From an uncultured Gammaproteobacteria bacterium (GTDB taxonomy: Bacteria; Patescibacteriota; Patescibacteriia; Magasanikbacterales; UBA922): a stretch of DNA of 64,000 nt. The stretch covers positions 205,870-269,869 of the forward strand of contig CAYUTO010000001.1 of assembly GCA_964447765.1 (NCBI GenBank), written 5' to 3'. The notes under the pieces were generated by a model. That model did not search any database, was not told the DNA's origin, and worked only from the letters and a program-made list of their open reading frames with translations. Positions 19,780 to 62,281 of this stretch are shown here, one piece after another. A program made the position numbers and the translations under genes. Each line of letters starts with the position of its first letter. Position 1 is the first letter of the stretch.

Positions 19780-19783
19780 AGGG

Positions 19784-20389
19784 TTATTCTAAATTTTCAA
19801 GTCTTTTTCTTAATTCATCTAAAGTTTCTTCGCCGTATTTCCAATAAGCAGTGCCCTGAACTCCGTAATCATACCCTAATATTTTTTGCGCAGAAGTAGA
19901 TAAACTTGTTATTTCATTATTGTAACTAATGTGTTTATTATCCACTACTGTCGCCTTTATATTTTCATTACGACTAAAAACTAATTCTGATCCTATAGCA
20001 ATATTCACCATACTAAAATTAAACTTTTCTCTTATCTCTGACCTAACTTGATCAATAGCGTTCTGGTCATCTTTGTTATCAATAAATTCTTTCTTTGGAG
20101 TAATATCCTCTATTTCTCTGAGCTTTAGGGCAGACCGGACTCTTTCGGGAGAAATTCTAAAAAATTCTCTTTTAGGATTTATCCGATTATCAGCAAAAGC
20201 ATCATGTAATTGAGTTTCTATAAACGTAGCGCCTGTTACTGTGCAGGCATAGAAACATGTAAAAGGTAAAGGAACACTGGTAGAGCTGCTCAACTCTCTA
20301 ATTCTTTGCTCAAGACTTGTTGATGTTTTTCCAATTTTCACATAGCCCGGCATTGACTCGTTCGTTAAAATATAAATAATTTCATTCAT
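19784..20389 (-). CDS. T5orf172 (GIY-YIG-like) plus DUF4357 domain protein
   Basis: The sequence IYILTNESMPGYVKIGKTS...RIRELS fits the T5orf172/MUG113 domain. A C-terminal DUF4357-like region follows. Confidence 0.6.
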   Translation of the reverse strand: MNEIIYILTNESMPGYVKIGKTSTSLEQRIRELSSSTSVPLPFTCFYACTVTGATFIETQLHDAFADNRINPKREFFRISPERVRSALKLREIEDITPKKEFIDNKDDQNAIDQVRSEIREKFNFSMVNIAIGSELVFSRNENIKATVVDNKHISYNNEITSLSTSAQKILGYDYGVQGTAYWKYGEETLDELRKRLENLE

Positions 20390-20393
20390 AAAT

Positions 20394-23225: not shown

Positions 23226-24816
23226 TTTCTTCTTCGTCGATTTCTTCCATTACCCGCTCTTTAATAGGGAGGAGATATTCTTTCATTCCAAACTGGCACG
23301 CCTTCAGAATTGACTGCGGTATTTTCTTAATCGTTATACGAGCATCTACCTTTTCACATCCGGGCTCAAACTTCTTCGGGCAAATAAGAAGGGTCTCATT
23401 TGTGCCTAAATGGCTCACGATCTGTTGGACCATCGCCACTGAGAGCATTTGCGTAGTTACATAGATACTATTCTTGCCTTGCCCCTTGCCATGCCTCCAG
23501 TAGTCAGTAGGGCTTGGAGCAAAGGTGTAATTGGTGAGCTTACACATTGCACGGATGAGTTTGACGTCATTGTAGTAGCTGTCGATCACTGGATTGCCGA
23601 ATTCATCAATTACCACGAAGCTAGGGGCGAGTTCATAAAACTTGAAACCGCCTCCGCCTTTCCAATCAAGAGTCTCTGTAAGTTTGAGTCCGTCATTACC
23701 ATCTACCACCTTTTTCATACGCGTCTGCACGTGAGTATATGCGTGTTCACCCATTTCAATGCCAATGAATTTTCTACCCATCTTTAAAGCTACTGCCGTT
23801 GCCGTGCCAGAGCCCAGGAATGAATCAAGAACAATGTCTCCCTTCTCAGAGCCAAGGGTCAAAATCCTCTGGAGAAGTCTTTCAGGTTTGGGAGTATCAA
23901 AAATGTCTTGATCAAACAGTTGTTTGATTTCTTTTTTCCCCTCTTGATTGTCACCGACGTCTTCACGCATCCACAATGTCATTGACACGACGCCGTCTTT
24001 AACTTCCGACAAAAATCGTTTAATCCTGGGAACGTTATCCCCGGTAGACCCGAAATAAATACGATTGTCTTCAACCATTTCTTGATATTTTTCTTTACTA
24101 AACCGCCAACAAGCTTGGGGCGGAGGCAATACTTTCTTTCCATTAGGGGTAACTATTTCATAAACCCTTGATTCAACCCTGGGTCCTACTTGGATCGGTC
24201 CGGATGCCCAAGGACCCCTTGAATCATTGTCTGGATTAGAAAAACTAGCATTAAGTTCGTCGGTCCTTGGTAGTTTATTTAAAATAAGAGGATTGTCACT
24301 TTTACCGTACACAAGGATAGCGTCATGGTTCCTTGAAAGAGTTTTCTTGAGATTAATTGGAGCGTATGACCTTTGCCAAATTACTTCATCGATAAAATTA
24401 TTCCTGCCAAATACTTCGTCACATAGAACTTTCAGGTAGTGACTTTCGCCTGCATCAATAGAAATCCATATCGTTCCGTTGTCTTTGCTCAATAAAACTT
24501 TCAAAATTTCAAGTCTGGGTCTTATTAGAGAGAGCCATGTTGAGTGTTCGACGCTATCGTCATAATGTTCAAAAGCTTCGCCGGTGTTGTAAGGAGGGTC
24601 AATGTAGATACATTTTATTTTTCCTTCGAATTCCGGAAGTAGTGCCTTGAGCGCGAGCAGATTGTCACCATGAATAATCATATTCTCGGTGTCCTTGTCG
24701 CCATACGACAGATCAGTCCGCTCTTCCAAGATGCGCGGTTCAATGTTGGCGATATCATACTCGGGATTGTTTTTCCCGATCCACGTAAGCTCTAGTTTTT
24801 GTTTGTTATTGCTCAT
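23209..24816 (-). CDS. mod: Type III R-M Mod subunit (beta-class N6-adenine DNA methyltransferase)
   Basis: The DPPYN motif (CIYIDPPYNTGEAF) precedes the FxGxG motif (VLDSFLGSGTATAVA). Confidence 0.85.
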   Translation of the reverse strand: MSNNKQKLELTWIGKNNPEYDIANIEPRILEERTDLSYGDKDTENMIIHGDNLLALKALLPEFEGKIKCIYIDPPYNTGEAFEHYDDSVEHSTWLSLIRPRLEILKVLLSKDNGTIWISIDAGESHYLKVLCDEVFGRNNFIDEVIWQRSYAPINLKKTLSRNHDAILVYGKSDNPLILNKLPRTDELNASFSNPDNDSRGPWASGPIQVGPRVESRVYEIVTPNGKKVLPPPQACWRFSKEKYQEMVEDNRIYFGSTGDNVPRIKRFLSEVKDGVVSMTLWMREDVGDNQEGKKEIKQLFDQDIFDTPKPERLLQRILTLGSEKGDIVLDSFLGSGTATAVALKMGRKFIGIEMGEHAYTHVQTRMKKVVDGNDGLKLTETLDWKGGGGFKFYELAPSFVVIDEFGNPVIDSYYNDVKLIRAMCKLTNYTFAPSPTDYWRHGKGQGKNSIYVTTQMLSVAMVQQIVSHLGTNETLLICPKKFEPGCEKVDARITIKKIPQSILKACQFGMKEYLLPIKERVMEEIDEEESESDE

Positions 24817-24822
24817 AATTTT

Positions 24823-30823: not shown

Positions 30824-30852
30824 TTGACATCAGGGGTCTTTTTCGCTAGAGT
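30824..30852 (+). promoter_or_regulatory. Sigma70 consensus-like promoter TTGACA-N17-TAGAGT
   Basis: TTGACA lies at 30824-30829. After a 17 nt spacer, TAGAGT lies at 30847-30852. Confidence 0.55.
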
Positions 30853-30938
30853 CGTGTACTTACCTGAAGTTTGGACAAGCATTCGCTTGGCCGCATGGTA
30901 AGGAACACTGAATCACTTCAGAGACAACGGAGGGCACT

Positions 30939-31196
30939 ATGCCTGCGAGTTATGACAGCAATCGAGTGAACGAGCTTGCTTACGAGATGCCCTGTTGGAG
31001 GCACCCGAAGATCAAGCTCACCACCAAGAGTCCGCAGTGCATCCGCTGCAAGTGGGAGGACGGCATCGTGATCCACTTCGTGCGGACCCCGAAGCTCGTC
31101 CAGATCTTCACCAGCCGACCGCTGGTCCAGATCCAGCTCGAGAGGCCGAAGCTCCTCGAGTTTCGTCCACCTCCAGGCGACGAGGCCGACAAGTGA
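30939..31196 (+). CDS. Small GC-rich hypothetical protein (85 aa; CxxH...CxxC) with its own promoter and terminator
   Basis: A GGAGGG ribosome-binding site lies 6 nt before the ATG. The local island is about 60% GC. Overlapping alternative-frame ORFs on both strands are typical of GC-rich DNA. The coding versus ncRNA status is unresolved. Confidence 0.35.
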   Translation: MPASYDSNRVNELAYEMPCWRHPKIKLTTKSPQCIRCKWEDGIVIHFVRTPKLVQIFTSRPLVQIQLERPKLLEFRPPPGDEADK

Positions 31197-31224
31197 CGTT
31201 GGGCCCCACACAGGCCCCACAATG

Positions 31225-31267
31225 ACCGAGATATCGCTCTTATGCATATCTCGGTCTCTTTCATTTT
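31225..31267 (+). terminator. Rho-independent terminator (ACCGAGATAT ... ATATCTCGGT followed by CTCTTTCATTTT)
   Basis: A perfect 10 bp stem with an 11 nt loop and a T-rich tail. Confidence 0.65.
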
Positions 31268-38808: not shown

Positions 38809-38895
38809 CGGAAGGTGAGAGATTCGAACTCTCGATACCCTTTCGGATATACCGCCTTTCCAAGGCGGCGCACTCGGCCACTATGCGAACCTTCC
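38809..38895 (-). tRNA. tRNA-Ser (anticodon GGA)
   Basis: A manual fold of the reverse complement gives a 7 bp acceptor stem (GGAAGGU/ACCUUCC). The anticodon stem CCGCC/GGCGG closes the loop UUGGAAA. A long variable arm is present. The T-arm is GAGAG-UUCGAAU-CUCUC and the discriminator is G. CCA is not encoded. Confidence 0.8.
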
Positions 38896-41925: not shown

Positions 41926-42225
41926 TTATTGATCTTCAAATACTCGCGGTACTGACAACATATTATTTTCCGAGTGTGGAAACAATGTTACAATCTTTTT
42001 TCTTGTCTCATCATCACTATTTTTTACCACATCATCTCTCATAATATCTTCAAGACCGGTGACTTGTGTAGTCGGCATGACACCCTCAGTTTCAACTTCA
42101 TTCAATGTATCAATATATGACAACACGACCGAGAGTTCTTCGGCATAGCGGATTTCTTCTTCTGGGGTTAGGGATAATCGAGCAAGATTTGCTATTCCCT
42201 TGATATCTTCGCGAGTTAGTGACAT
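41926..42225 (-). CDS. gatC: Amidotransferase subunit C
   Basis: The sequence MSLTREDIKGIANLARLSLTPEE is present. Length is 99 aa. Confidence 0.85.
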   Translation of the reverse strand: MSLTREDIKGIANLARLSLTPEEEIRYAEELSVVLSYIDTLNEVETEGVMPTTQVTGLEDIMRDDVVKNSDDETRKKIVTLFPHSENNMLSVPRVFEDQ

Positions 42226-42285
42226 ATGGAGCTTAGTGTATCAGATAATACGAGTGCAGTGCAATAACTAATACACCCATTAGTC

Positions 42286-42314
42286 TTGACAAAATCATAC
42301 ATATCAGGTACCAT
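42286..42314 (+). promoter_or_regulatory. Promoter TTGACA-N17-TACCAT for candidate ncRNA-1
   Basis: TTGACA lies at 42286-42291 and TACCAT at 42309-42314. Confidence 0.4.
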
Positions 42315-42320
42315 ATCCTT

Positions 42321-42440
42321 CGCGCCGTGGTAGCTTTTGCTGTTTTCCTAGTTGGGCCCGCACCCACCCAGGGATTCAACAGGCTACCACGGTCGCATCT
42401 ATCTCAATTTCCACACTCAAAACGCCCTCCGGCGTTTTTA
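42321..42440 (+). ncRNA. Candidate structured small RNA 1 (~120 nt): 13 bp closing stem, GC-rich interior, intrinsic terminator
   Basis: GCGCCGTGGTAGC at 42322-42334 pairs with GCTACCACGGTCGC at 42383-42396. The terminator is AAAACGCCCTCCGGCGTTTTT. The region is ORF-free. Identity is unknown. No match to SRP RNA, RNase P RNA or tmRNA hallmarks was found by eye. Confidence 0.3.
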
Positions 42441-42448
42441 CTTATTTA

Positions 42449-42476
42449 TTGACTTTTTTATATATAATGCTATAGT
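42449..42476 (+). promoter_or_regulatory. Promoter TTGACT-N16-TATAGT for candidate ncRNA-2
   Basis: TTGACT lies at 42449-42454 and TATAGT at 42471-42476. Confidence 0.4.
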
Positions 42477-42482
42477 CTATGC

Positions 42483-42612
42483 AAAATCGACCTGACGACC
42501 CTCGCAGGACTCCTTACTGATCGAGCCACGGTGACTGACGGGGACATTCTCCTTAGGCGGCGTAGAGGGCGTCAGGTCGATTTCTCCCTCTTCCCTATTT
42601 AGGGATTTTTTT
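42483..42612 (+). ncRNA. Candidate structured small RNA 2 (~130 nt): 17 bp closing stem plus a T-run
   Basis: ATCGACCTGACGACCCTC at 42486-42503 pairs with GAGGGCGTCAGGTCGAT at 42565-42581. A short hairpin CCCTATTTAGGG follows, with the run TTTTTTT. Identity is unknown. Confidence 0.3.
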
Positions 42613-42747
42613 ATCCTTGACTTTCACTCTTACCCACGCTATTCTCTTGCCTAGGACCGGTCCCAGACACGTCTAGGCAAAGACTATTTATCTTCTCAAT
42701 TGTATCCCCCAAAAAAGAAGGTAAACCAGGACCGGTCCAACCTTCAT

Positions 42748-45574
<2,827 letters not shown>

Positions 45575-45661
45575 AGTGATAAAAAGTATACCATATGTGT
45601 ATACAAAAACTAGCCCTCCAATTGGAGAGCTAGCTTTTGATCGATTACATTGAGTATCCTA

Positions 45662-46102
45662 TTACTGACCGATCATTCCTGATGGTGAAGCAGTAAGTGC
45701 TCCTGCTGCGAATCCACCTGCTCCTGCCTGAAGTGATGCAGTGATTGTATAGGTAGTCGTGCTTCCAGTATAACTATAGAATTCTCCTGCAGTCGGACCT
45801 TCTGGTACGAGACCCATGTATGGAGTTGCGCAACCAGTAGTACTAAATCCGGTCGCATTCAAACATGAGTAGTTTGTGTCTCCCAAATTAACTGCTGATG
45901 CAGCAATAGGGTAAGAATTTTGATCCGTGTAGTAAAGTTCGAGAGCTGTCTGGATCTGCTTGATATCTGACAAACGTTTTGCATCATTTGCCTTCTGTCG
46001 AGCTGAACCAAGCGCAACTACTGCGAGTGTTGAAAGTAAACCAATAATTGCGATTACAACGAGTAATTCAATCAAGGTAAAACCTTTTCTATTTTTGTTC
46101 AT
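45662..46102 (-). CDS. Type IV pilin / pseudopilin (prepilin-type N-terminal methylation motif)
   Basis: The sequence KGFTLIELLVVIAIIGLLSTLAV matches the class III signal peptide with GFTLIE. Confidence 0.8.
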   Translation of the reverse strand: MNKNRKGFTLIELLVVIAIIGLLSTLAVVALGSARQKANDAKRLSDIKQIQTALELYYTDQNSYPIAASAVNLGDTNYSCLNATGFSTTGCATPYMGLVPEGPTAGEFYSYTGSTTTYTITASLQAGAGGFAAGALTASPSGMIGQ

Positions 46103-46148
46103 AATGTCTCACCCCCTTCCCAGATGTGAACCATAACTATAGTGCTAG

Positions 46149-46532
46149 TTATTTTATTTTTAAAACTGACCTCACTTTACTCACCGCTTCAGAGGGTTTC
46201 GTATGTGCCTTGATCAGGTAGTCCACTGCACCCATCTCAAGCCCCTTCTCTACATCATCTTTTTGCCCCAAATTAGTCAGTAAAATCACTGGGATTTTTT
46301 TGGTTGTTTCACTTTTTTTAAGTTCTTCTAATACTGCAAATCCATCGAGTTTTGGCATGAGGATATCAAGTAAAATGATGTCTGGATTCTTCTTTTGAGC
46401 CATTTCAAGACCCACTTCGCCATTTTCAGCAAGTATAACCTTGAATTTCTCCATCTCAAATTTCGTCTTGTAGATATTTGCTAGAAAACTATCATCCTCC
46501 ACTAATAGTACATTCACTACTCTATCTGTCAT
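46149..46532 (-). CDS. Single-domain response regulator (CheY-like receiver)
   Basis: The sequence VLLVEDDSF...DIILLDILMPKLDGF...PVILLTN has the conserved Asp residues. Confidence 0.8.
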   Translation of the reverse strand: MTDRVVNVLLVEDDSFLANIYKTKFEMEKFKVILAENGEVGLEMAQKKNPDIILLDILMPKLDGFAVLEELKKSETTKKIPVILLTNLGQKDDVEKGLEMGAVDYLIKAHTKPSEAVSKVRSVLKIK

Positions 46533-46626
46533 AAGCTAGAATTTATAAACTCAACACATACAGTATACCAGACACGCTTTCTTTCCCCAAGAGTGACTGT
46601 GGATAGGTTATAATACAAATCATCTA

Positions 46627-47763
46627 TTAAAAATGCCGTAATGCGAGTCCGATTGAAACTGCCATGCGCGAACCTATGTCTCGAAGCACAGGCTTCAATC
46701 CTGCTTGATAAATTACTCTCGCCCACGGATCACCTACAAATACTTTCATTGGAAAAGTTTCAGTGAGGTATGATGCAATTGGCGCAAACAAGGCACCTCC
46801 ACCGGAAAGAATTATTTTTTCAGGGGTTTTTCCTTCATTTCCTGATTGTTGAAGATAGAGATCAAAACTGTATTGAATTTCTTTTGCCAGCGGATCAAGG
46901 AATGGCATAAATCGGTCATAGGGAATTCTACTCCCCACACTCGATATATCTTTCTTGATTTGCCCAACCAGAGCTCGATCAACACCGAGGTGCTCACCTA
47001 ATATTTCGTCAATCGTGTTTCCACCGAGATGCAGACTTCGATGTGTCATCGGAAGTCCATCTTCAATAATAAAAAAATTGGTCCGCTCTGCCCCGATATC
47101 CACAACCATCGATACAGCGGCGTCTTTTCCAACAAGTGAGCGTGCGAGCGCAAACGCCTCGGTTTCAAGTTCTTGTAATTCGAGGCCAGCTTTATCAAAA
47201 ATTGCGGTATAAAAAGCGACGAGTGCCTTTGGTGCTGCAGTCACAAGTAGTGTCGTATAATTCTTTTTTGACCCTTCTTTTGCAGGCACTTTCTGGTATA
47301 CAATCTGCATTTCATCTGCCGGACGTGAAATCATTTTAGTAATTTCAGCCTCTACGATACGCGGTAATTCTTTTTCCTCGATATTTGGCAGATTGAGTAC
47401 CGCATGGAATACATAGGACACCGGAAGACTCGAAGTCACTCGTTTTCCTTCAACTCGAGCTTCTTTTACGAGTGCTTTGAGTAAATCAGCATACACTCCG
47501 ATACGGGACTCATTTAAAATAAAATCCCTCACCGACGAAGGTGCCAATGCTGAAGATTTCTGATCCATTGGACTAGGGATCTGACTTTTTTGCTGTGTAG
47601 AGTTGAATGTTACCTTTGGAATATGGACATCAAGTTCTTTATCCAAAATCCCATACGTCCAGAGCTGTGGACGAGTCTTATTTTTTTTGAGCTCCACCAG
47701 CTTGATGCCGTGAGCCCCAATATCAACACCGATAAATGATTCTTGTTTTGAGAGTAATCCCAT
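46627..47763 (-). CDS. pilM: Type IV pilus assembly protein PilM (actin-like ATPase fold)
   Basis: The sequence FIGVDIGAHGIKLVELKK is the FtsA/PilM N-terminus. The start was chosen at MGLLSK (47763). Confidence 0.75.
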   Translation of the reverse strand: MGLLSKQESFIGVDIGAHGIKLVELKKNKTRPQLWTYGILDKELDVHIPKVTFNSTQQKSQIPSPMDQKSSALAPSSVRDFILNESRIGVYADLLKALVKEARVEGKRVTSSLPVSYVFHAVLNLPNIEEKELPRIVEAEITKMISRPADEMQIVYQKVPAKEGSKKNYTTLLVTAAPKALVAFYTAIFDKAGLELQELETEAFALARSLVGKDAAVSMVVDIGAERTNFFIIEDGLPMTHRSLHLGGNTIDEILGEHLGVDRALVGQIKKDISSVGSRIPYDRFMPFLDPLAKEIQYSFDLYLQQSGNEGKTPEKIILSGGGALFAPIASYLTETFPMKVFVGDPWARVIYQAGLKPVLRDIGSRMAVSIGLALRHF

Positions 47764-47870
47764 ATGCAGAATAGTATAACATAAAATACAAAGATTCGGT
47801 ACAAGATTAAAAGATTGAAGACTGAAGATTATCAATGCTATATCTATTCAATCTTTAATCTTCATTTTTT

Positions 47871-48779
47871 CTATTTGATATATGTCATTTCATAGTCCGC
47901 GCCACCAATAATTACCTTAATATCCCCTCCCTGATCCGTCCTCCACACCGTACTTGATACACGCTCCAGTCGTTTGATCACTCGTCTGCTCGGGTGCCCA
48001 TAATTATTATCCTTTCCAGCTGAGGCTACTGCGTCTCGTGGGGTCGTGAGTTCTAAAAATTCCTCGCTTGTTGAACTGTCGCTACCATGGTGTCCAAGTT
48101 TTAAAATATCCACATCCAATTCTTCTCCATATACTTCTCCCAAATATTTTTCCAGAGGATCCTCAGCATCAGCCATCAATAATACGGACGTACTGCCATG
48201 CAATACTTTTATCACTATTGAAGTATTGTTTGAACCCGAATCTTTTGTAAGCCCGGGAATTTTTGAATCTTTCGGAATCTCATGGTCGGGATACAAGAAC
48301 TGAAGTGTTGTAGAAGCAATGTCCCATTCGACTGGACTACTAATTTCTACATACTCACCTTCTGCACGCGAGGCCGTATTAAAAGATTTCCACAATTTAC
48401 TATCTTCTTTTTTCAAACCATTATATACCACATGCTTTACTTCAAACCTATTGAGAACTTCTTCACATCCCCCATAATGATCAAGGTCAGGATGCGTTAC
48501 TACCAGATAATCAATTTCCCTATCATTCCAATCCATTACTCGACCAAGCGCCTCAAGAATTCGCCCATCGATTGCACAATCAATCAACATATCTTCACCA
48601 TTCGCAAATTTCATATACGTCGCATCTCCTTGTCCAATATCAAGAAATGTAATCTCCAGATTGCTTTCACCCACTTCTTTAATACCCCCAACTTGCGGAT
48701 CATTATTTTCTGGTACCTCAAACAAATAACTTACAGCAACCACAAGACTCAATACTATTATATACAAAAGATGTTTCAT
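47871..48779 (-). CDS. Metallo-beta-lactamase domain protein corresponding to the ComEC C-terminal domain, encoded separately
   Basis: The sequence LDIGQGDATYM...VVTHPDLDHYGG...LKLGHHGSDSS carries the MBL motifs. It overlaps the ComEC core gene by 4 nt. Confidence 0.75.
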   Translation of the reverse strand: MKHLLYIIVLSLVVAVSYLFEVPENNDPQVGGIKEVGESNLEITFLDIGQGDATYMKFANGEDMLIDCAIDGRILEALGRVMDWNDREIDYLVVTHPDLDHYGGCEEVLNRFEVKHVVYNGLKKEDSKLWKSFNTASRAEGEYVEISSPVEWDIASTTLQFLYPDHEIPKDSKIPGLTKDSGSNNTSIVIKVLHGSTSVLLMADAEDPLEKYLGEVYGEELDVDILKLGHHGSDSSTSEEFLELTTPRDAVASAGKDNNYGHPSRRVIKRLERVSSTVWRTDQGGDIKVIIGGADYEMTYIK

Positions 48780-50290
48780 ACATTAGTTACTTTTTTTAAT
48801 TTAACCATTAGTCCGAACAGCAGTACATATAATAGCACCATACTCACATAATGTATCCTTAGTTCGACTGATGCAAAAGGTACGTGCGCAAAAAATTGCA
48901 CTACTCGTATGATATATTCCATACCTATATAACCCACAAACCCAAGCATATTTGCCAAGGTTACTGACACAAAACTAAGTGCGACCACTACTGCACCCGC
49001 AATCATAATCCATGGAATAATCCATAGAATAAGAATGTTTACGAGGGGTGCCACAATTGAAAGCCGACCAAATTGAAACAGTATCAAAGGCAATGTCATA
49101 ATAATCGCAGCAAGAGTTGAAATAAGAGACTCTTTGAGTCCCAAAAAATTGGGAAGTTTGGTTATATATTTTTCAAGTATTGGCGACAAGTAGACCAACC
49201 CAATCGTCGCGAGAAACGAGAGCTGAAATCCTGCATCCCAGATGAGGACAAACGGATTATGGACAGTCATAAGTACTGCGGTAAGTACGAGCACATTCCC
49301 AATCGAGCTTTTTCGACCACCCTGTTTTGCAACTAAAACTAATACCCCCATAATTCCTGCTCGCACGACTGATGCGCTCGCACCTGTAAATATCACAAAT
49401 AGAATAATCCCCGTGATGACGACCCAAAAAGCTTTTTTTCGTGGGATGTACACTGCCTTACATAATGCAATAAAAATAGTCGCAATAATCGTAATATTGT
49501 ACCCAGAAATCGCTACAATATGAGTGACACCCGTGGTTGCAAATAAATCATTGAGCGAACCGAGCCCTCCGCGATATCCATATAAGAGCCCTGCCATAAA
49601 GCTCGCATACGGCTCGTGCCAGAGATACTCAATATTATTCGCAAGCTTTTTTTTGAAAGAAAATATAGCGCTGTAAAATACATTTCCTTTCATCTCTCCC
49701 GTAGGATTAATCTCTGGGTTTTGACAGAGTGCATAGATATTCATGCGCGATAGATATCGATCATAACGGAAGGTCGTTCCATTTTCTTTATCTTCAATTG
49801 GCTCAGGTTTTTCTATCTGGCATTCAATACTCAATTGCTCACCATACACATAACGCGGATACAAATCACCTTTCATATACACTTCACCAACTATTTCCTT
49901 ATCTCTATCAACAAAACGTTCCACGTGTACTCGATACCGCACACCATCCTGCCGAATATCTGGCTCAGATGATACAAAGCCTACAAATGAAACTTTATTT
50001 TCTGCATAATTATGGATATATTCAGAAGTATTGGGAGGAAATACAGATTGATAGCGAATGAAGCCCAATATAAAGAATAGTACAGATAATATTACAAAGC
50101 GAGCTAAAGGGTTATCCTTCCATAGAAAGAATGCCGTTACCAAGACTCCTAAGATACTTACTACATACCACAAAGAAATAAATTTCTCAGTCAAAGAGAT
50201 AAGTGTCACACCCAAAAGAAAACAAAAACAGAGCACCAAAAATGTTTTGCTTTTTGAATTTGTTATATGTATGAAGCCTGCCTTGAACAT
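48776..50290 (-). CDS. comEC: ComEC/Rec2 DNA-internalisation channel core (DUF4131 plus Competence domain)
   Basis: A polytopic membrane protein. The conserved competence-domain region reads ATTGVTHIVAISGYNITIIA. Confidence 0.8.
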   Translation of the reverse strand: MFKAGFIHITNSKSKTFLVLCFCFLLGVTLISLTEKFISLWYVVSILGVLVTAFFLWKDNPLARFVILSVLFFILGFIRYQSVFPPNTSEYIHNYAENKVSFVGFVSSEPDIRQDGVRYRVHVERFVDRDKEIVGEVYMKGDLYPRYVYGEQLSIECQIEKPEPIEDKENGTTFRYDRYLSRMNIYALCQNPEINPTGEMKGNVFYSAIFSFKKKLANNIEYLWHEPYASFMAGLLYGYRGGLGSLNDLFATTGVTHIVAISGYNITIIATIFIALCKAVYIPRKKAFWVVITGIILFVIFTGASASVVRAGIMGVLVLVAKQGGRKSSIGNVLVLTAVLMTVHNPFVLIWDAGFQLSFLATIGLVYLSPILEKYITKLPNFLGLKESLISTLAAIIMTLPLILFQFGRLSIVAPLVNILILWIIPWIMIAGAVVVALSFVSVTLANMLGFVGYIGMEYIIRVVQFFAHVPFASVELRIHYVSMVLLYVLLFGLMVKLKKVTNV

Positions 50291-50293
50291 AAA

Positions 50294-50782
50294 CTTAATA
50301 GAACACGGATTGGACGGAATTTAACTAATTTGAACGGAATTTTTAAATTTATTTTCAAATACTTTTCTTTTAAATTGCGGTTTTATACCAAAATTAAATA
50401 AAAAACCAACCTCAATTTCGGTTGCTCTTAGATAATTAATAAGTTGTGCCTCATGTTCCTCTCGAAGACCTTCCGTTGCCTTAAGTTCAATAATTATTTT
50501 ATTCTCCACTATAATATCTGCAAAATATTCACCTACAAGTATTTTTAAATCATAGACTTTTATCGGGACTTGTCTAATACCTCTGATTCTTAATCGTTGT
50601 AACTCAAACACCAATGCATTTTCATACACTTTTTCTAAAAACCCGTATCCAAGCCTATTATATACATTATAGTAGGCTTTGATGATTGTATGCCCCAATT
50701 CCCCCTCCAACATACAATGTATTAATTCGTCTTGATTCCGTCCAATTCTGTGAAATCCGTGTTCTATTAAATCAAACAACAA
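50294..50782 (-). mobile_element. Putative small mobile cassette: a GxxExxY (PD-(D/E)XK fold) gene flanked by ~45 bp terminal inverted repeats
   Basis: The right TIR at 50294-50342 and the left TIR at 50734-50770 (reverse complement) share TTAATAGAACACGGATT...GGACGGAAT. A third copy lies at 12312-12359. The TIRs overlap the first and last codons of the gene. The gene start overlaps the leuS stop by 11 nt. Confidence 0.35.
50321..50782 (-). CDS. GxxExxY family protein (PD-(D/E)XK nuclease-like)
   Basis: The GxxExxY signature is visible in YGFLEKVYENALVFEL. Length is 153 aa. Confidence 0.8.
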   Translation of the reverse strand: MLFDLIEHGFHRIGRNQDELIHCMLEGELGHTIIKAYYNVYNRLGYGFLEKVYENALVFELQRLRIRGIRQVPIKVYDLKILVGEYFADIIVENKIIIELKATEGLREEHEAQLINYLRATEIEVGFLFNFGIKPQFKRKVFENKFKNSVQIS

Positions 50783-53606
50783 TATTCAATATCTTCCCCG
50801 GCACGTAGATTATTTTTTTCGGTTTTTTATCTTCGATCCATTTTGATATTTGTTCTTGTTCATGAACCGCTTTCATCGCGACTTCTTCTCCTGCATCCGG
50901 AGCAATCTCGATCATGCCTCTCATTTTTCCATTTACCTGTACTGCGAGTGTAATCACCTCTTCCTTGAGTTTCGACTCATCGTATTCGGGCCAATCTGCC
51001 TGATGAATACTTCCCTCTCCTTGGAATATACTATGGTACAGCTCCTCAGTGAGATGTACTGCAAAAGGTGCTAGTATTCGATTAAATCTTTCAAGGACAG
51101 ATTTTTGAATTTTATCAGCCTTGGTCAATTCATTCACCGTAATCATCATCTCTGAGACTGACGTATTGAATTGAAATGCAGAAATATCATTCGTCACTTT
51201 CTTAATCGTCTTATTGATCAATTTTTCCTGAGACTCAATCACCACATCCACTAATTCTTTTTCATATAATCTGATATAGCGCTGAAGGAATTTGTATACA
51301 CCCTCAACCCCATTCGTATTCCACGCAGCAGATTGGGTAAATGGGCCAATAAACATTTCATACATTCGGAAACTATCTGCACCATATTTTTCAATCACAT
51401 CATCTGGATTGATCACATTATTCCATCGCTTACTCATCTTACGACCATCTTCTGCCATGATAAGCCCTACGTTAATCAGTTTGTGAAATGGCTCATCAGT
51501 TGAGACAACACCTTGATCAAACAAAAATTTGTGCCAGAATCGAGCATATATCAGGTGACGAGTTGCATGTTCAGTTCCACCTACATACAAATCTACCCCA
51601 TTCTCCCCCATCCAATATTTTTCTTTTGCTGGATCAACTAATTTTTTGGTATTCTTTGGATCAATGTAGCGCAAATAATACCAACTACTTCCTGCCCACT
51701 GTGGCATCGTATTTGTCTCCCGTTTTCCACCTGGTACATTCACCCAACTTTCAATTGACGCTAAGGGTGATTCGCCAGTGCCCGTAGGTTCATAATGTTC
51801 TACTTGAGGGAGTTCTACTGGAAGTTCTTTATCTCCGACAACTTCAATAGATCCGTCTTCTTTGTGAATAAAAGGGAAAGGCTCACCCCAATAACGCTGT
51901 CTCGCAAATACCCAATCACGAAGTTTATACTGCACCTTTCGCTTTCCTTTATTATTTTCTTCCAGCCATTGAATCATTTTTTCTTTAGCATCTTGGGTTG
52001 AGAGGTCATTCAAGAAATCGGAATTAATCGCAATTCCATCTTCTGATATACAGTGTTTGCTTTCCACATACCACTGCCAAAAAGTTTTATGATGGTCTAA
52101 AGTTAACATTTTTTCCACTTCATTTTTTTTCGCCCACACCACTTCATGCATTCCTTCATCTTCTTCACTCAGCTTTTCTCTTTTATTACTATGGAGCTCA
52201 ACAACATACACATGTTCAAAATCATAACAATTAACATCTTTTCTTGGCTTAAATCCGTGTCCAAAAAAGTTTGGTAGCGTAAGACCAAGAGAAAAATCTG
52301 TATATCCAGTTTCTTCTTTAATTTCACGCTCTATTGCTTCATCTACAGATTCCCCGTCCTCTATTGCTCCACCAACAAAACCACTAATATCTTGTTTCCA
52401 ATTAAGAAGTAGATATGTATCATCTTTTGGGTTATGGATAATAGCTGAGACAACATTCTTTTTTCTAACATCCTTATTCTCTCTTGGTTCGCATATACCG
52501 CTACATCGAAGATAAGGAGCAACTACTTGCTGGATTGGCAAACCAAACTTCTTCGCAAATTCATGATCACGCTCATCATGTGCAGGTACTGCCATGATTG
52601 CTCCTGTTCCATATCCCATCATCACATAATCTGCGATCCAGATCGGAAGTGATTCTCCAGTTACCGGATGAATCACCGAAAGTCCTTTTAACTCTACACC
52701 AGTTTTTTCTTTGGTAGCCTGACGATCTACATCTGTTTTTGACTTTGTTTTTTCAATATAGGATTCAACCTCATTCCAATTCTGAATTTCAGATTTCATT
52801 TCTTCTACTAATTCGTGCTCTGGCGCAACCACTACATACGTAGCACCAAACAAGGTGTCTGGACGTGTGGTGAAGACTTCAATTGTTGAATTTGAACTTT
52901 GAAATTTGAAATTTATGAGGGCTCCTTCACTTCTCCCGATCCAGTGTCTCTGCATATCTTTGATCGAGTCTTCCCAATCAAGTTTTTCTAATCCTTCGAG
53001 CAATCTATCTGCGTATTTGGTAATTTTAATAAGCCACTGACGAAGTTTTTTCTTTTCGACTACTGAGCCACAGCGTTCGCATTTTCCATCTTCTAGATCT
53101 TCAAGAGCAAGACCTGTTTTGCAGGTAGGACACCAGATGATTGGTTCATACACTTCTTCCATGAGTCCCGCTTCAAACATTCGCGCAATACACCACTGTG
53201 TCCACCGGTAATATTCTGGATCAGTCGTATTGATTTCTCGCGTCCAATCAAAATTAAAACCGATTTTTTCTAATTGCGATTTGAATACTTCAATATTTTT
53301 TTCTACAGCAACACTTGGATGCACCTTATTCTTAATTGCATAATTTTCTGCAGGTAATCCAAAAGCGTCCCATCCCATCGGATGGAGCACATTGAATCCG
53401 TTCATACGCTTGAATCGAGAATAGATGTCTGTTGCAATATAGCCTTTAGGGTGTCCTACATGCAGTCCTGCGCCACTTGGGTATGGAAACATGTCGAGAA
53501 CATAGCACTTAGGCCTGTCTGTCGTATCTTCTACTAGGTAAACACCCTTCTCTTCCCAATACTTTCTCCACTTTTCTTCTATCTTTTTCGGATTATACAT
53601 TTCCAT
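50772..53606 (-). CDS. leuS: Leucyl-tRNA synthetase with a Nudix hydrolase domain inserted after the CP1 editing domain
   Basis: The N-terminal motif PYPSGAGLHVGHPKGY (HIGH type), the editing motifs TRPDTLFGAT and AVPAHDERDHEFAKKFGLPI and the KMSKR motif are present. A Nudix box GGAIEDGESVDEAIEREIKEETGY lies at roughly aa 385-530. Confidence 0.9.
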   Translation of the reverse strand: MEMYNPKKIEEKWRKYWEEKGVYLVEDTTDRPKCYVLDMFPYPSGAGLHVGHPKGYIATDIYSRFKRMNGFNVLHPMGWDAFGLPAENYAIKNKVHPSVAVEKNIEVFKSQLEKIGFNFDWTREINTTDPEYYRWTQWCIARMFEAGLMEEVYEPIIWCPTCKTGLALEDLEDGKCERCGSVVEKKKLRQWLIKITKYADRLLEGLEKLDWEDSIKDMQRHWIGRSEGALINFKFQSSNSTIEVFTTRPDTLFGATYVVVAPEHELVEEMKSEIQNWNEVESYIEKTKSKTDVDRQATKEKTGVELKGLSVIHPVTGESLPIWIADYVMMGYGTGAIMAVPAHDERDHEFAKKFGLPIQQVVAPYLRCSGICEPRENKDVRKKNVVSAIIHNPKDDTYLLLNWKQDISGFVGGAIEDGESVDEAIEREIKEETGYTDFSLGLTLPNFFGHGFKPRKDVNCYDFEHVYVVELHSNKREKLSEEDEGMHEVVWAKKNEVEKMLTLDHHKTFWQWYVESKHCISEDGIAINSDFLNDLSTQDAKEKMIQWLEENNKGKRKVQYKLRDWVFARQRYWGEPFPFIHKEDGSIEVVGDKELPVELPQVEHYEPTGTGESPLASIESWVNVPGGKRETNTMPQWAGSSWYYLRYIDPKNTKKLVDPAKEKYWMGENGVDLYVGGTEHATRHLIYARFWHKFLFDQGVVSTDEPFHKLINVGLIMAEDGRKMSKRWNNVINPDDVIEKYGADSFRMYEMFIGPFTQSAAWNTNGVEGVYKFLQRYIRLYEKELVDVVIESQEKLINKTIKKVTNDISAFQFNTSVSEMMITVNELTKADKIQKSVLERFNRILAPFAVHLTEELYHSIFQGEGSIHQADWPEYDESKLKEEVITLAVQVNGKMRGMIEIAPDAGEEVAMKAVHEQEQISKWIEDKKPKKIIYVPGKILNIVV

Positions 53607-53663
53607 AGAAACAATACTAATGTGATTCCTATATACTAGCCCAGTCACCTATTTTCTGCAACC

Positions 53664-56600
53664 TTAAGGAGCAATCTCACCACTTGGACTATCCGAAGGA
53701 GTTGAAGATGATTCTTCAGAAGTTTCTTCACTATTATTTATTTCGTCTTGGACTTCTTGTATCAGTTGATCAATAAAACTTGGAGCTGAATCCACCGTTT
53801 CTTCTTCTGGAGGGGTCGGATCTGATTGAGGCTCAACAGGTACATCAACTTGTGGAACACTCTCTGGTTCTGGTTCTTCAACAGCTTCTTCAGAAGCAGA
53901 GGAGGAGCCTGATTCTTCAGGTACTGGACCCGGTACCATTAATTCACCCTGAAGATCACAATCACCCGGTAATTTTTCCCATTCACCATTGGCAATTCGA
54001 ATACAGTAGATTTCTCCCGTCACACTATCCGTCATTTCCATTTCTTCAGTACGAATCTTATCAAACACACCTACTACTGCAGTGACTCTCTCCGCTAGAA
54101 AATCTTTAATCACACCAGCTCCGTCTGAGAGTCTGTTTACGAGATAGGTCATAGCCGAAGCCAGCGGTCTGTTTGCAGCATAGAGGAGTTCTTCTTCTGA
54201 GAGCGTACGAGGAGTAGATGAATTTACTCCTGCAGTTGCAAGGAGAAGTCCATCGATTTGTTGTTGCTGGGATTGTACAGCTGAGATGAGAGGGATCACG
54301 AGACGAGCATAATCGACTGATCGAGGAGTGGTACTACTTGGTTCGTAGATGACGAGATGTTTGTTAACGAGATCCACTTCTTCTGCAATTAACCCTAATT
54401 CTTCTACCTCATCATGATTACGTTTATAGGTTACTGGTCGGAGTTCCAGTATGGTTGAGAGTCCATCATTCCAAGTCTCAATGTCATGTTTAAATCTTTG
54501 AGAGGAAACGGTACAGTTACCTGCTTGATGCGTGATCTTTCCTCCGGTGTCAAAACACAGATAGTCACTGGTGGCACCAGGAGCAGTGAGGCCTGGCATG
54601 TAGACCAGAGAACTTGAGACAACGAGACCACGGAGAGTAGTCGTACCAACCACGCCCAAACCTCCATCGGTGAACATGCCCCCTACACCCACATTAAGAC
54701 CACTGGTGATGTAAGCGTTGTTTCCTACCGTGAGATTCTCCGTTACTGAGATATTACTTGATTGGAGAGAACCGATGTGTGCTGAAGGGGCGTCGATACC
54801 GCCGAGGTCGATGACGGAGAGAGAATGCGAACCATAGCTTGCTACATAGGCATATTTACCAGAAATATGGATTGAAGAAATACCGTTGAGTGCAGTGGAA
54901 GAAACAACTCCACCAACAATGCTCGGTTGAGTAGGGTTCGAAATGTCGATTACACGAAGTGATGTATCTTCAGTATTCGCGACATACGCATATTTACCTG
55001 CAACCTGGATTGAACGCGCACCATTAAGTTGAGACGAAGAAATAGTACCAACAACGGTGGAAGACACAGGATTAGAGATGTCAACAACACTAACGGTGCC
55101 ACCATAACCCGCCACATACGCATATTTTCCTGAAACATACACAGAGCCTGCAGTACCTGCAACATAAGTCATGCTACTAAGAATTATAGGTGTTGTGGGA
55201 TTGGAGATATCGAGCACTGTTAACCTACCTTCATCACTCCCTGTCACATACGCGTACTTACCTGATACATACACGGCGTTAGCACCATTAAGAGCAGTGG
55301 AAGAAACAATACTACTAACAATCGTTGGGGTGGTAGGATTAGAAACGTCAACGATAGCAAAAGAATCACCAAGAAAAGAGGTCACATACGCATATTTCCC
55401 TGAAACGTAGAGGGCAACAGGAATATTCAATGCAGTAGATGACACAACACTACCAACAATACTTGGCGTGGTAGGATTAGAGATATCAACGACAGATAGA
55501 GAATTAGCGTCATAGCTTGCTACATAGGCGTATTTTCCTGCCGCATACACTGCGCGAGCGCCTTGCAGCACAGTCGATGACACAACGCCTCCGACAATAG
55601 TTGGTGATGTAGGATTAGAGATATCAACGATACGAAGGGAGTTGTCAGCAAGGTTTGCCACATATGCATACTTACCTGAAACGTACGTTGAGATCGCTGA
55701 ATTAAGCGCAGTTGATGATGCAACAAATCCTACAATTGTAGGATTACTCTTGATACTCACATCCACCGACCCAGCAGATACCAGTCCGCCAGTCGATATG
55801 CCGCCAGCTCCCACATTCAATCCATTTGAAACATATGCATTATTTGCAACCGTAAGATTATCTGTAACATTAGCCGTATTTACTTGAAGTGCACCAATAT
55901 TTGCAGAAGGCGCATCAATACCGCCAAGGTCAATAATGCGGAACGTCCCACCAGCACCATTCGCCACATACGCATATTTTCCTGATACGTAGACGGACCG
56001 TGCATCATCGAGTAATGTAACGTGCTTGACCCCTCCGACAATTACAGGATTAGTAGAGCTTGAAATATTAATAATACGAATAGAGTCATCGTCCCGAGCT
56101 GCCACATACGCATATTTTCCTGATACGTAGACGGACCGTGCACCATTAAGATTTGCAGCGTCTTTTATTCCACCAACAATACTCGGAGCAGTTGAGCTAG
56201 AGATATCAATAATACGAAGTGAATCATCACTTTCATTCGCCACATACGCATATTTTCCTGATACGTAGACGGACCATGGATCATTGAGGGCAGTTGTTGA
56301 AACTACACTCCCTACAATAGATGGAGTGGCAGGATTTGAGATGTCGATGATACGCAGTGAGTGAGTGTTTCTATCTGTTGTATACGCATATTTTCCTGAA
56401 ACATATATAGAAGATAGTCCACCAAGTGCAGTGGTGGAAACCACACTTCCAACAATACTAAGGTTGGTTGAATTTGAGATGTCGATGACTTGGAGAGAAC
56501 TATCTCCTGATACATACGCATATTTACCTGAAACATACACAGCACTAGCAGTAATCGCTGTTGAAGTTACCCTACCAACAACACTTGGAGTAGTAGGATT

Positions 56601-59600
56601 TGAAACATCGATCACATGGAGCGATTCAAATGCCGTCACATACACATTATTACCGGTAACAAATAAGTCCCCTGGTAAAAAGATCTCTGAGTCGTTTAAA
56701 CTACCAATGTTAACCGGAGTAGTAGGATTTGAAACATCGATTACATTCAACTCATCACTCCCTATACCAATCGTGTATGCATATTTACCAAAAACTTTAA
56801 CTTCTCCAGGAATACCGCCCAAACTCACACCTCCTAGAATAGATGGTTCAGCAAGAGCAGTCTGATTGAAACTACCTGCAACAAAAATATTTGATGAACT
56901 AACATTCGTACCTGATGCGTTGGTGAATGCGAGATTGCTAGTAAATAAATTAGTACTCGTGATAGATGCCCCAACTGCAATTCCAAATGAGAAATTTGTA
57001 GTAGTTGCATTGGTACCATTTAGATTAGTAAATCGCAATCCGGCTGAGAAGAAGTTCGTGCTCGTTGCATTCGTTAAGGTAGTGACTCCAAGATTCGTGA
57101 GACCAGAGACATTCAAGTTAGTTGAGGTAAGTGAAGTTCCGTTCAATCTAGTAAATGAGATATTGGTTGAAGTAACATTAGTAAGTACAGATGAGGTAAC
57201 AAATAAAAACGAAGAAGAAACATTTCCTGCAACATTTAAATTTCCATCGGTTCTCAATGTACCTGCGACAAGTCGATACAAATAAGTATCACTTCCAAAG
57301 CTCAAACCTCCAAATCTAGTGGTCGATGCAGCAAGATTAAGAATCGTTTGAGGAGAAGAGGTGCCAATACCAACAAAACGACCCCCCGTAATACGCATTG
57401 CTTCGACATTATTCATCATGAAGCTAATCGGATTACTCGCATTTGAATTAATATAATTAACACCTGCCAATACACCTCCTACACCCAAATTCGCATGACC
57501 AAATGAAAATTGGAGAGTATTAGTACTATCAAATAAATCAAACGATGTGTATCCATTGGACGCCGCATTCTGATATCTCACTAATCCAGAACCTGGAGCA
57601 TTAGCTACAACAGTCAACGCACTGCTAATCGATGTAGTACCGACACTAATATTTCCAGAAAAAGTTGTTGTTGCTAGACGAGATTGTCCGGTAGTTGTAA
57701 TCGAAGCACCATTCAACCGTACAAAAGAAATATTAGTACCCGTAAGATTTGTTCCTACTGCATTCACAAATGCGAAGCTAGCTGTTGAAGTAATGTTTTC
57801 ACCAATGAGGTTTGTAAACTGTAATCCGGCTGAAAAGAAATTTGTTGAAGTGCCATTGGTAAACGTAGTCATACCAAGATTGGTGAGACCAGACACATTT
57901 AAATTAGTAGAGGTAACATTTACCCCACTCAAGTCAGTGAAAGAAATGTTGGTCGAGGTGAGTGATGCAATACTGGCACTGCCAAATGCAAGATTACTAA
58001 AGAATGCATTCGTAGAAGTAATACTTCCAAACGTAGACGAGGTAGCAAAGAGATTAGTGGTTGTCAAGGAAGTGACACTTAATCCTCCTGCAATATATGA
58101 GGTGGAAGTTCCTGATACCGAAAGTGCGCCATCTACTTTGATTCCCCCAATTCCAACCACAAGACCGTTACCAACATAAGCATCATTAGTAACATTAAAA
58201 TTATCAGTGATATTAAGATTACTTACCTGTAATGCGCCGATATTAGCTGAAGGAGCATCGATTCCCCCAATATCGAGAATATGAAACTCATTACCACCAC
58301 TTTGATTACCCACATACGCGTATTTACCAGAGACAAAAATAGCTCGACCAGCGTCAGGAAGATTAAATCCTCCACCGATGGTATTTGGAGCAGTAGAACT
58401 TGAAATATCAATCACATAGATCTCGGCTCCAATGGCACTAGAATTGGCCAAATACGCATATTTACCTGCGACATAAATCGACTGCACCGTATCATTCGAA
58501 AAATCTTCACTCCCGACAACAGAAAGAGCCGTAGAACTTGAAATATCAATAATATGGAAATCACTGACAGGGTCTGCGGTACCATTAGTACCTACATACG
58601 CATATTTTCCAGAGACATAGATCGATTTAACGGTATTCAACAAATCAATACCCCCAGCAGTCGTAGGACTGACCGGATTAGAGATATTAATAACCTGAAG
58701 ATCATTACCCGTGGAAGAGGTAATACCAATAAACGCATATTTACCAGATACGAAGACAGCGTTGACATCAGTTGATACATCAACACCTCCCACACTGATT
58801 GGACTTACCGGATTTGAGATATCGATAATATGGAAATCATTACCGGACACTGAATTCACACCCACATATGCGTACTTACCAGAGACATAAATTGTTTGAA
58901 CACCCGTCGACAAATCAATACCACCTACTTCAATAGGATTGGTCGGATTAGAGATATCAATAACATGTAGATCACTGCCTGCGGCTGCAGTAGTACCTAC
59001 ATATGCATATTTTCCAGAGACGTACACTGAGATAGCTGCTGAAGATGCCCAGGTTATACCCCCACCAAGCTCGACAGGATTAGTAGGATCCGAAACATCA
59101 ATCACATGAAAATCAACACCGGTACTCTGAGTAACTACATATGCATATTTCCCCGATACGTGTAGTGCCCGAATTGAATCTGATAAATTAAGAGTACCTG
59201 CTTCTGTTAATGATGTATCTACTGCTTGCGTAAAATTATCTACTAAATACAGATTAGTAGACGAAACATTGGTAAATACACCTGTCGAAGGATTTGAATT
59301 ACCAATAGGAGAGTTGTTAACCGTTCCCCCATCAATCGTGAGAGAATTAGCAACCATTGGGTCAGTCACGGAGTTCGTGGGAAGTGAGAGTGCTCCCGTA
59401 ACAGCTAAATTGGTCGAAGTAATACTAGTACCATTCAATCTGGTAAATGAAATATTTGTTGAAGTGAGACTTGTGCCGTTTGCAGTACCAAATGAGAGAC
59501 TTTGTGCAAAGAAGTTTGCAGTTGAACTTGCATTGGTAAATACTGCAGTTGAAGCTCCCGTTGATCCAATCGGTGTGTTGTTAATACTTCCCCCATCGAT

Positions 59601-62063: not shown

Positions 62064-62281
62064 AATTAAACAATTACGAAATAACCACAAGGCGACTATT
62101 CTCTGCCTTATTTTTACTAGTGGTAGTGTACCATATTTATGGCTTCACTACTATGAAAATGTGGTCGGGATTGTGGAGAACTTTAATCCGATACATACAT
62201 TCTATTTTTCCATCATTCCCCGCATTTTAATTCATATAAAAAATACCAGAATTCTCTGGTATTTTTTATATGAAACACTTT

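Follow-up and report, generated by a model that had tools for sequence, protein, structure and literature searches.

Among the described bacterial RNAs, the Y RNAs, the 6S RNA, and the small RNAs (sRNAs) RsaE/RoxS and Yfr1 come closest in architecture to U1, U2, and U3, three predicted RNAs encoded in the gap between the gatC and ligA genes of a bacterium of the order Magasanikbacterales (Patescibacteriota; candidate phyla radiation, CPR), which are the subject of this work. The locus lies in a stretch of 64,000 nt (contig CAYUTO010000001.1 of assembly GCA_964447765.1, positions 205,870 to 269,869), which we call the window and whose numbering is used throughout. RsaE/RoxS of Firmicutes and Yfr1 of cyanobacteria have, like the RNAs predicted here, a promoter and a terminator of their own, a length of ~100–130 nt, a stable 5' stem-loop, and a G-poor, C/U-rich single strand complementary to ribosome-binding sites, and they are likewise lineage-specific and fast-evolving outside functional motifs. 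The 6S RNA is a rod of ~150–200 nt with a central bubble mimicking an open promoter; the rod, the long closing helix, and the apical stem-loop recur in the RNAs of our locus, where the U2 class has an internal bubble of its own (UUCAAA / ACGCAUCUC). The genes of bacterial Y RNAs normally adjoin rsr (Ro60, TROVE domain). The Y RNAs themselves are 80–130 nt long, have large internal loops and a long stem in which the 5' end is paired with a segment further downstream, and are encoded by two to four clustered genes; those of bacteria carry near their 5' end the motif GNCGAAN0-1G, which is the proposed Rsr-binding site (PMC4201824). Their size, terminal helix, internal loops, tandem arrangement of distinct genes, and conserved helix sequence around a variable interior are all found in the RNAs described below (PMC4201824). 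Our search of the literature brought up no report of small RNAs, whether regulatory or structural, from CPR/Patescibacteria.

The gatC–ligA gap and its predicted RNA genes

Results of our analysis indicate that three structured non-coding RNAs of ~120–130 nt are very probably encoded in the gap, each by a gene of its own. The original prediction, made from the sequence alone, had described a gap of about 540 bp free of open reading frames (ORFs), with two units that each possess a promoter and a terminator. The gap indeed spans 542 bp (42226–42767), its longest chance ORF is of 48 aa, and both units, U1 and U2, are located where they had been placed; the count has to be corrected, as a third unit, U3, is present, the promoter of which begins inside the span then considered (42286–42640) and had not been recognised as part of a unit. 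In a consensus scan, the plus strand of the gap contains three promoter-like and three terminator-like sites in strict alternation. The strict pattern TTGAC[AT]-N16-18-TANNNT has eight matches on both strands of the window, three of which fall in this gap, all on the plus strand and each followed by a terminator. Almost all genes of the window are on the minus strand, and the three units, being on the plus strand, are opposed to both flanking genes. The features of the locus are the following:

41926–42225, minus strand, gatC
42235–42264, minus strand, probable gatC promoter, divergent from U1 (-35 TTGCAC at 42259–42264, 18-nt spacer, -10 TACACT at 42235–42240)
42286–42314, plus strand, U1 promoter, TTGACA-17-TACCAT
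42321–42445, plus strand, predicted U1 RNA, ~125 nt
42322–42396, plus strand, long hairpin of U1, 75 nt, with the apical hexaloop CCCGCA at 42357–42362
42327–42452, GTG ORF of 41 codons with a hydrophobic start, overlapping U1
42397–42418, plus strand, G-poor tail of U1, AUCUAUCUCAAUUUCCACACUC
42419–42438, plus strand, terminator stem of U1, U-run to 42445
42449–42476, plus strand, U2 promoter, TTGACT-16-TATAGT, with an extended -10 (TGcTATAGT)
42483–42612, plus strand, predicted U2 RNA, ~130 nt, with a branched interior
42484–42503 with 42564–42583, plus strand, closing helix of U2, AUCGACCUGACG... / ...CGUCAGGUCGAU, 14 + 5 pairs
42584–42591, plus strand, pyrimidine tail of U2, CUCCCUCU
42592–42605, plus strand, terminator stem of U2, U-run to 42612
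42617–42645, plus strand, U3 promoter, TTGACT-17-TATTCT
~42652–42769, plus strand, predicted U3 RNA, ~120 nt
42654–42663 with 42729–42738, plus strand, U3 helix of 10 pairs, GGACCGGUCC pairing with itself
42739–42747, plus strand, U3 tail
42748–42763, plus strand, terminator stem of U3, T-run 42764–42769
42768–44843, minus strand, ligA

Although U1, U2, and U3 are not similar to each other in sequence, they share one design: a near-consensus promoter of the sigma-70 type, a long 5' helix, a single-stranded tail, and an intrinsic terminator. The helix begins a few nucleotides from the expected transcription start, the 5' end (5' strands UCGCGCCGUGGUAGC in U1, AAAUCGACCUGACG in U2, and GGACCGGUCC in U3) being paired with a segment 70–100 nt downstream, and the enclosed interior is variable. 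In U1, the closing stem comprises 10 perfect pairs (42325–42334 with 42383–42392), or ~14 pairs when one bulge is included, while the 17-nt arms of U2 (42484–42500 and 42567–42583) are 94% complementary. The closing stems of 13 and 17 bp and the sizes of about 120 and 130 nt given in the original prediction thus hold. Its GC-rich interior does not: the interior is not especially GC-rich as a conserved property and is the most variable part of these RNAs. In the case of U3, an alternative 5' hairpin (UUGCCUAG/CUAGGCAA) can be drawn, and the internal loop is C-rich (UAUCCCCCAAAAAA). The tails between helix and terminator are of 8–22 nt and almost free of G (C/U/A); in 21 units, G makes up 2.3% of the tails vs. 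18% of the same strand of the window. The motifs CCUCU, UCCUC, CUAUC, and CACACU recur in them, and CACACUCAA is common to the tail of U1 and an otherwise unrelated unit of locus L012 (related loci are designated by L numbers).

The minimum free energies (MFE) of folding are -50.3 kcal/mol for U1 (z -6.98), -55.4 kcal/mol for U2 (z -4.89), and -41.0 kcal/mol for U3 (z -5.92), and in each case none of 200 dinucleotide shuffles folded as well. G-U pairs present in the helices suggest that selection acts on the plus-strand RNA. A covariance model of U1 (R1) scores 132 bits on the plus strand vs. 26 bits on the minus strand. Taken together with the promoters and terminators, these observations place the RNAs on the plus strand.

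In the neighbourhood of the gap, the region 44792–50290 (minus strand) is a type IV pilus/competence cluster encoding a prepilin peptidase, a pilin, a response regulator, PilM, ComEC, and a protein of the metallo-beta-lactamase fold. On the opposite flank, gatCAB is followed by the gene of a tandem LOG/SLOG protein, the resemblance of which to DprA is weak.

Conservation and covariation in related loci

A blastn search with the units against 80 ligA loci of GTDB genomes returned only a 24-nt match at the start of gatC, and a metagenome scan with the C-terminus of LigA gave only relatives of at most 59% identity. Since neither search yielded anything alignable, close relatives were gathered through GatC homologues and the contigs that encode them. 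L161 was obtained from SRR12712865, and assemblies of the relatives are GCA_018061425.1, GCA_035438805.1, GCA_964565405.1, and GCA_052033375.1. Their gaps, with GatC identity to the window, contain:

L161 (GatC 100%), gap identical to that of the window
L162 (94%), U1-U2-U3
L163 (91%), U1, then the contig end
L164–L166 (89%), U1-U2
L168 (87%), U1, cut by the contig end
L170 (79%), U1-like, A-like, U2
L002 (71%), U2
L025 (66%), U1-like
L177 (72%), a long U2-like unit
L001 and L169 (88% and 76%), two other types, A and B
L178 (78%), one A/B-type unit
L171–L176 (75%), no gap and no RNA

The homologues of U1 (L162, L163, L164–166, L168, and L025) and of U2 (L162, L164, L002, and L170) all adjoin gatC in the same orientation. 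Both the -35 and the -10 element of U1 are kept in L162, L163, L164, L168, L170, and L025. The U2 promoter is kept as TTGACTTTTTT...TGCTATAGT, TGCTAAAGT, or TGCTATGGT in L162, L164, L170, and L002, and that of U3 as TTGACTTTCATTCTTACCCACGATATTCT in L162.

In a plain MAFFT alignment of four U1 homologues, 97% of the cells of the predicted helices are paired and 10 of 34 pairs have changed on both sides, values reached by none of 500 shuffles, with slid controls being 32–48% paired. The alignment supports the 75-nt hairpin together with the terminator. The CCCGCA hexaloop and the lower helix (GUAGCUYUUG...AAGCUAC) are constant, and it is the loop-adjacent stems that covary. As to U2, MAFFT applied to all six U2-like sequences gave a structurally incoherent result, their variable interiors not being alignable, and for this reason a covariance model (R2) was built from L162 and L170 alone and used to guide the alignment. 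R2 independently found U2 of L164 (E 3e-8), of L002 (E 9e-6), and of the window (28.4 bits, E 5e-4); the B unit of L001 was matched weakly by it, and the long U2-like unit of L177 was not recovered. In the model-guided alignment, 94% of cells are paired and 13 of 30 pairs have changed on both sides, which none of 500 shuffles reached, the pair count being subject to the caveat that the alignment was fitted to R2. The proposal of the original prediction that these RNAs are either divergent forms of a known RNA or novel sRNAs can be narrowed to the latter, as promoter, helix, and terminator are kept as a unit in relatives and compensatory changes in the U1 and U2 helices are well above those of shuffled and slid controls.

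U3 has a single homologue, that of L162, which is 91% identical to it, promoter and terminator included, although the MFE folds of the two differ. With two sequences only and differing folds, the structure of U3 is a tentative one.

The status of U1 and U2 as novel structured small RNAs is therefore supported by covariation, and for U3 the same status is plausible. The locus shows what is generally looked for in sRNA genes, namely a promoter and a terminator of their own on the same strand, no ORF, and, in U1 and U2, a covarying structure. On sequence evidence, U1–U3 are lineage-restricted new RNA families of a familiar general kind, and the related sequences suffice to define at least two new covariation-supported families, those of U1 and U2. 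The CPR bacteria have tiny genomes with very few regulators, so that the use of 540 bp for three RNAs with strong promoters is a considerable expense.

R1 also gave a weak match (23 bits, E 0.02) in locus L007 (5753–5826, minus strand), the LigA of which is 61% identical. The matched element is located upstream of ligA, contains the motif CCCGCAC known from the apical loop of U1, and is preceded by a separate TTGACA promoter; it may be a distant relative of U1 at a different position.

Distribution and evolution

The relatives of LigA mark the bacterium as a CPR member of the Magasanikbacteria type. The gene order ligA-gatC-gatA is widespread in Patescibacteria. In many CPR relatives, ligA and gatC are 6–36 bp apart or overlap (L008, L044, L045, L048, L049, L066, L171, and L175), and in more distant CPR bacteria the two genes abut and there is no RNA. 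Loci of the clade to which the window belongs have gaps of 200–550 bp, in all cases with units that share this design and this orientation. When 1.2 Mb of related loci were scanned for the combination of a promoter, a closing stem, and a terminator, such units were found almost only beside ligA or gatC, and within the window each unit has a single copy. On the side away from gatC, the RNAs of L164 and L170 adjoin a gene of an FG-GAP/fn3 protein and not ligA, which indicates that the units travel with gatC and are not tied to ligA.

As judged from the compared loci, close relatives differ in the units that they carry, owing to the gain and loss of units and the replacement of alleles. The closest relative by ligA, L001 (89%), has different RNA types. 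In L162, gatC, gatA, U1, and U3 are 90–91% identical to those of the window, and U2 just 56%; the U2 of L162 is 74% identical to that of L170, the gatC of which is 73% identical. The departure of U2 from its flanks points to the replacement of the U2 allele. In the comparison of L001 with L169, the B RNA is 96% and the A RNA 84% identical, vs. 73–77% for gatC and gatA and 55% for the spacer between the units. The identity of B above that of its flanks would result either from strong purifying selection or from a recent transfer of the RNA only. Such evolution is unusual, in that alleles are replaced between flanks 90% identical while one RNA type is kept at 96% over flanks ~75% identical.

Other RNAs antisense to their neighbours are predicted beside ligA or gatC of distant Patescibacteria, in L003 (4272–4575), L013 (8021–8309), L024 (8609–8833), L004 (8051–8243), L032 (8045–8140), and L082 (4322–4503), in all six on the minus strand of the locus. 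They are of 85–300 nt, with strong folds, their own promoters, and long closing helices, and those tested have no Rfam match at the gathering threshold.

Comparison with known RNA families

Rfam 15 (4227 models), which is believed to include models of Y RNA and 6S RNA, was searched at the gathering threshold and at E<=10. At the gathering threshold, the whole window contains only a tRNA-Ser (38809–38895), and ten related loci contain only tRNAs. At E<=10, the sole match in 42150–42850 is a chance one to CRISPR-DR46 (21.6 bits vs. 50, E=1), on the minus strand over the terminator of U1, and nothing was found in any gap of seven related loci; the relaxed search thus assigns the units to no known family. 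ARAGORN detected one tRNA-Ser in the window and no tRNA or transfer-messenger RNA (tmRNA) in the gap. A search of phage DNA and a pattern scan of viral contigs for U1 gave no match.

Several identities were considered and rejected. A riboswitch or attenuator is excluded because there is no downstream gene on the plus strand: each unit precedes the promoter of the next one, past U3 there is just the antisense strand of ligA, and every neighbouring gene is on the minus strand. A type I toxin mRNA or another small protein gene is not consistent with the homologues, among which no start codon with its frame is conserved; the GTG ORF over U1 is cut short after 14 codons in L162, its start codon is replaced by GTA in L164, and 1-nt indels disrupt its frame in L163. 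In the case of the signal recognition particle (SRP) 4.5S RNA, no Rfam match was obtained at E<=10, and the apical loop of U1 is the hexaloop CCCGCA and not a GNRA-type tetraloop. The stretch UGCUGUUUNCC of U1 has a chance-level short resemblance to Escherichia coli 4.5S RNA, which is absent from the U1 homologues. The 6S RNA was rejected as well: the structured parts of the units are of 75–100 nt, there is no match at E<=10, 6S RNA is about twice as long, and the units are three at one locus and absent from close relatives.

The differences from RsaE/RoxS and Yfr1 concern sequence, with no similarity to them at the sequence or covariance-model level, structure, with a 5' helix of 14–22 pairs enclosing 50–70 nt, the presence of three genes head to tail, and the host, a CPR bacterium most genes of which have no Shine–Dalgarno (SD) sequence.

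Membership in the Y RNA family is not supported, and the architecture alone is alike. The stretch GGCUGGUCUGGA of L170 resembles GGCUGGUCCGA, the 5' end of human Y RNA. In the U2 class, the apical loops have the sequence NGUUC, with none of the further positions of a tRNA T-loop. The units differ from Y RNAs in having an additional 3' tail and a terminator, and no rsr/TROVE gene is present among the scanned ORFs of the window. The motif GNCGAAN0-1G is absent from the 5' strands of U1–U3, which also have no mimics of T- or D-arms, although the CUGGUC-type 5' strand of their relatives resembles the GGUCCGA quoted for Y RNAs (PMC4201824).

Possible functions

That the three sRNA genes encode trans-acting riboregulators is a reading to which we give an even chance, and regulation by pairing of the tails, which is one part of it, is put forward somewhat more tentatively. 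In this model, the terminal helix would protect the 5' end and may serve as a recognition site of a protein or RNase III, while the G-free, pyrimidine-rich tail would be the pairing surface for purine-rich, SD-like leaders of mRNAs. Such leaders are probably rare in this genome. Most genes of the window have A/T-rich leaders with no SD sequence, and several leaders appear to be very short. The gene of the type IV pilin (45662–46102, minus strand) has a strong, long SD, GGGAAGGGGGUGAGA, in a leader at ~46103–46135, and this SD is kept across Magasanikbacteria, a phylum-level group. This leader, 3.4 kb away, would be the strongest candidate target in the window. In a target prediction against the 51 translation start regions of the window, the tail of U2 paired with the pilin leader at -23.7 kcal/mol vs. 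-15.6 kcal/mol for the next best leader, and six of 300 shuffled tails equalled this value.

A number of results weigh against this reading, in addition to the above-mentioned fitting of the U2 alignment to its model. Target pairing of the tails of U1 and U3 is no better than that of shuffles. For the U2 tails of relatives, the predicted pairing with the conserved leader of the pilin gene is limited to -12 to -16 kcal/mol, and part of the pairing of the window U2 with this leader requires the opening of the terminator stem. Conservation in U1 is higher in the lower helix and the apical loop than it is in the tail, and the B-type RNAs are conserved over their whole sequence (96%), which fits recognition by a protein at least as well as a short seed. 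Finally, a Pfam scan of ~55 ORFs of the window detected no TROVE/Ro, Hfq, ProQ, or CsrA-type protein and no RNA chaperone.

Some of these observations are accommodated by a different, rather unlikely explanation, the main rival of this reading, in which the RNAs are scaffolds or decoys that bind a protein, as Y RNAs bind Ro60/Rsr or 6S RNA binds RNA polymerase. In this case, the terminal helix and the conserved loops would be recognised by a conserved protein, and the variable interior or the tail would recruit or block a partner. Besides the conservation of the U1 loop and lower helix over its tail and of the B RNA along its full length, it is the match of size, 5' helix, internal loops, and tandem genes to the description of Y RNAs (PMC4201824) that argues for it, as does the fact that each class conserves the sequence of its closing helix and not the pairing alone: the U2 class has AUCGRC...GYCGAU, and the A/B units (L001, L169, L170, and L178) have ACUGGUCUG...CAGACCAGU. 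Against such scaffolds speak the lack of any match in the relaxed Rfam search, the absence from U1–U3 of the Rsr-binding motif and of the T-arm-like element described for Y RNAs (PMC4201824), the absence of a suitable binding protein from the scanned ORFs, and the presence of the tail and terminator outside the helix. If either the link to the pilin leader or that to a binding protein is true, these RNAs would offer the first handle on post-transcriptional control in the CPR group, and if neither is, they would be ordinary lineage-specific sRNA candidates.

A more speculative version, which we regard as improbable, would make the gap beside gatC a cassette-like sRNA island of this clade, in which modular units are swapped between lineages by recombination and the helices (AUCGRC... 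or ACUGGUCUG...) dock a CPR protein. Were this true, the RNAs would represent a new class of ribonucleoprotein, similar to Y RNAs in logic and unrelated to them in sequence, and they might be tied to the neighbouring type IV pilus/competence genes used in the interaction of an episymbiont with its host.

The position of the units on the strand opposite to ligA and gatC allows for an explanation in cis, to which we attach a small probability, namely that an antisense or transcription-collision module was inserted in an ancestral ligA-gatCAB operon and, by convergent transcription or by forming duplexes with a read-through transcript of ligA, uncouples or tunes the expression of ligA and gatCAB. 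The close spacing or overlap of ligA and gatC in many CPR relatives is suggestive of co-transcription, and in the clade of the window antisense units occupy the gap, with gatC having a conserved putative promoter of its own. This promoter would leave a leader of a few nucleotides before the gatC ATG, and its block (TAGTGTATCAGA...GCAGTGCAA / CTGCAA) is kept in L001, L002, L025, and L162–L170; it can only be inferred, as its score is under the threshold of the consensus scan. No good terminator belonging to ligA itself is present, the T-run of U3 overlaps the ligA stop codon (42768–42770), and the terminator of U1 alone looks bidirectional. Interference, however, needs no compensated helices, conserved loops, or G-free tails, and the RNAs of L164 and L170 are beside gatC with no ligA as the other neighbour.

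It is very improbable that the units are elements acting at the DNA level, such as miniature inverted repeats or recombination cassettes, and that their RNAs have no function. Their gain, loss, and replacement among close relatives, the history of U2 in particular (56% identity between the window and L162 despite flanks of 90–91%, and 74% between L162 and L170), and the similarity of closing-arm sequences across unit classes could be so explained. However, each unit has one copy in the window and is essentially confined to the gap across the 1.2 Mb of related loci, the promoter and terminator are outside the repeats and conserved with them, the helices contain G-U pairs, and neither a transposase or integrase nearby nor a phage or viral match was found.

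Least likely of all, and hardly worth retaining, is that the units are very divergent housekeeping RNAs (SRP, 6S, RNase P, or tmRNA) or encode small proteins or type I toxins, since, although CPR RNAs are often atypical and an ORF with a hydrophobic start overlaps U1, that ORF is truncated, startless, or frameshifted in homologues, the Rfam and tRNA/tmRNA searches of the window and the relaxed Rfam search of relatives gave no identity for the units, and the absence or replacement of units in the close relatives L001, L169, and L171–176 makes an essential RNA unlikely.

Other features of the window

Several features outside the gap were also observed. At 30824–31260 (plus strand), a consensus promoter (TTGACA-17-TAGAGT) and an SD sequence (GGAGG) precede an ORF of 85 aa (30939–31196), with a hairpin at ~31224–31256. 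The ORF, on the plus strand among genes of the minus strand, has no Pfam match and lies in a stretch that by eye is GC-rich (the window is of ~41% GC), and the region may be a foreign insert.

The region 19030–27771 (minus strand) has the look of a defence or DNA-modification island, with genes of a PD-(D/E)XK nuclease, a T5orf172 protein, an N6/N4 DNA methylase, an SNF2 helicase, and a ResIII/SWI2-SNF2 protein with a TnsA-like endonuclease domain. At 50295–50770, a gene of a PD-(D/E)XK_3 nuclease (50321–50782) is bracketed by 55-nt inverted repeats (TTAATAGAACACGGATTGGAC...), related copies of which (12254–12363) flank the start of an ORF with no Pfam match (11921–12301). The repeat-bracketed nuclease may be a small mobile or intervening-sequence-like element.

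The leucyl-tRNA synthetase (50772–53648, minus strand) has a NUDIX domain (aa 398–519) inserted after its editing domain. The region 53664–62090 (minus strand) encodes a 2808-aa LVIVD-repeat protein with 18 matched stretches and a periodicity of 138 nt, in which a Peptidase_S74 (endosialidase chaperone) domain is located near the C-terminus.

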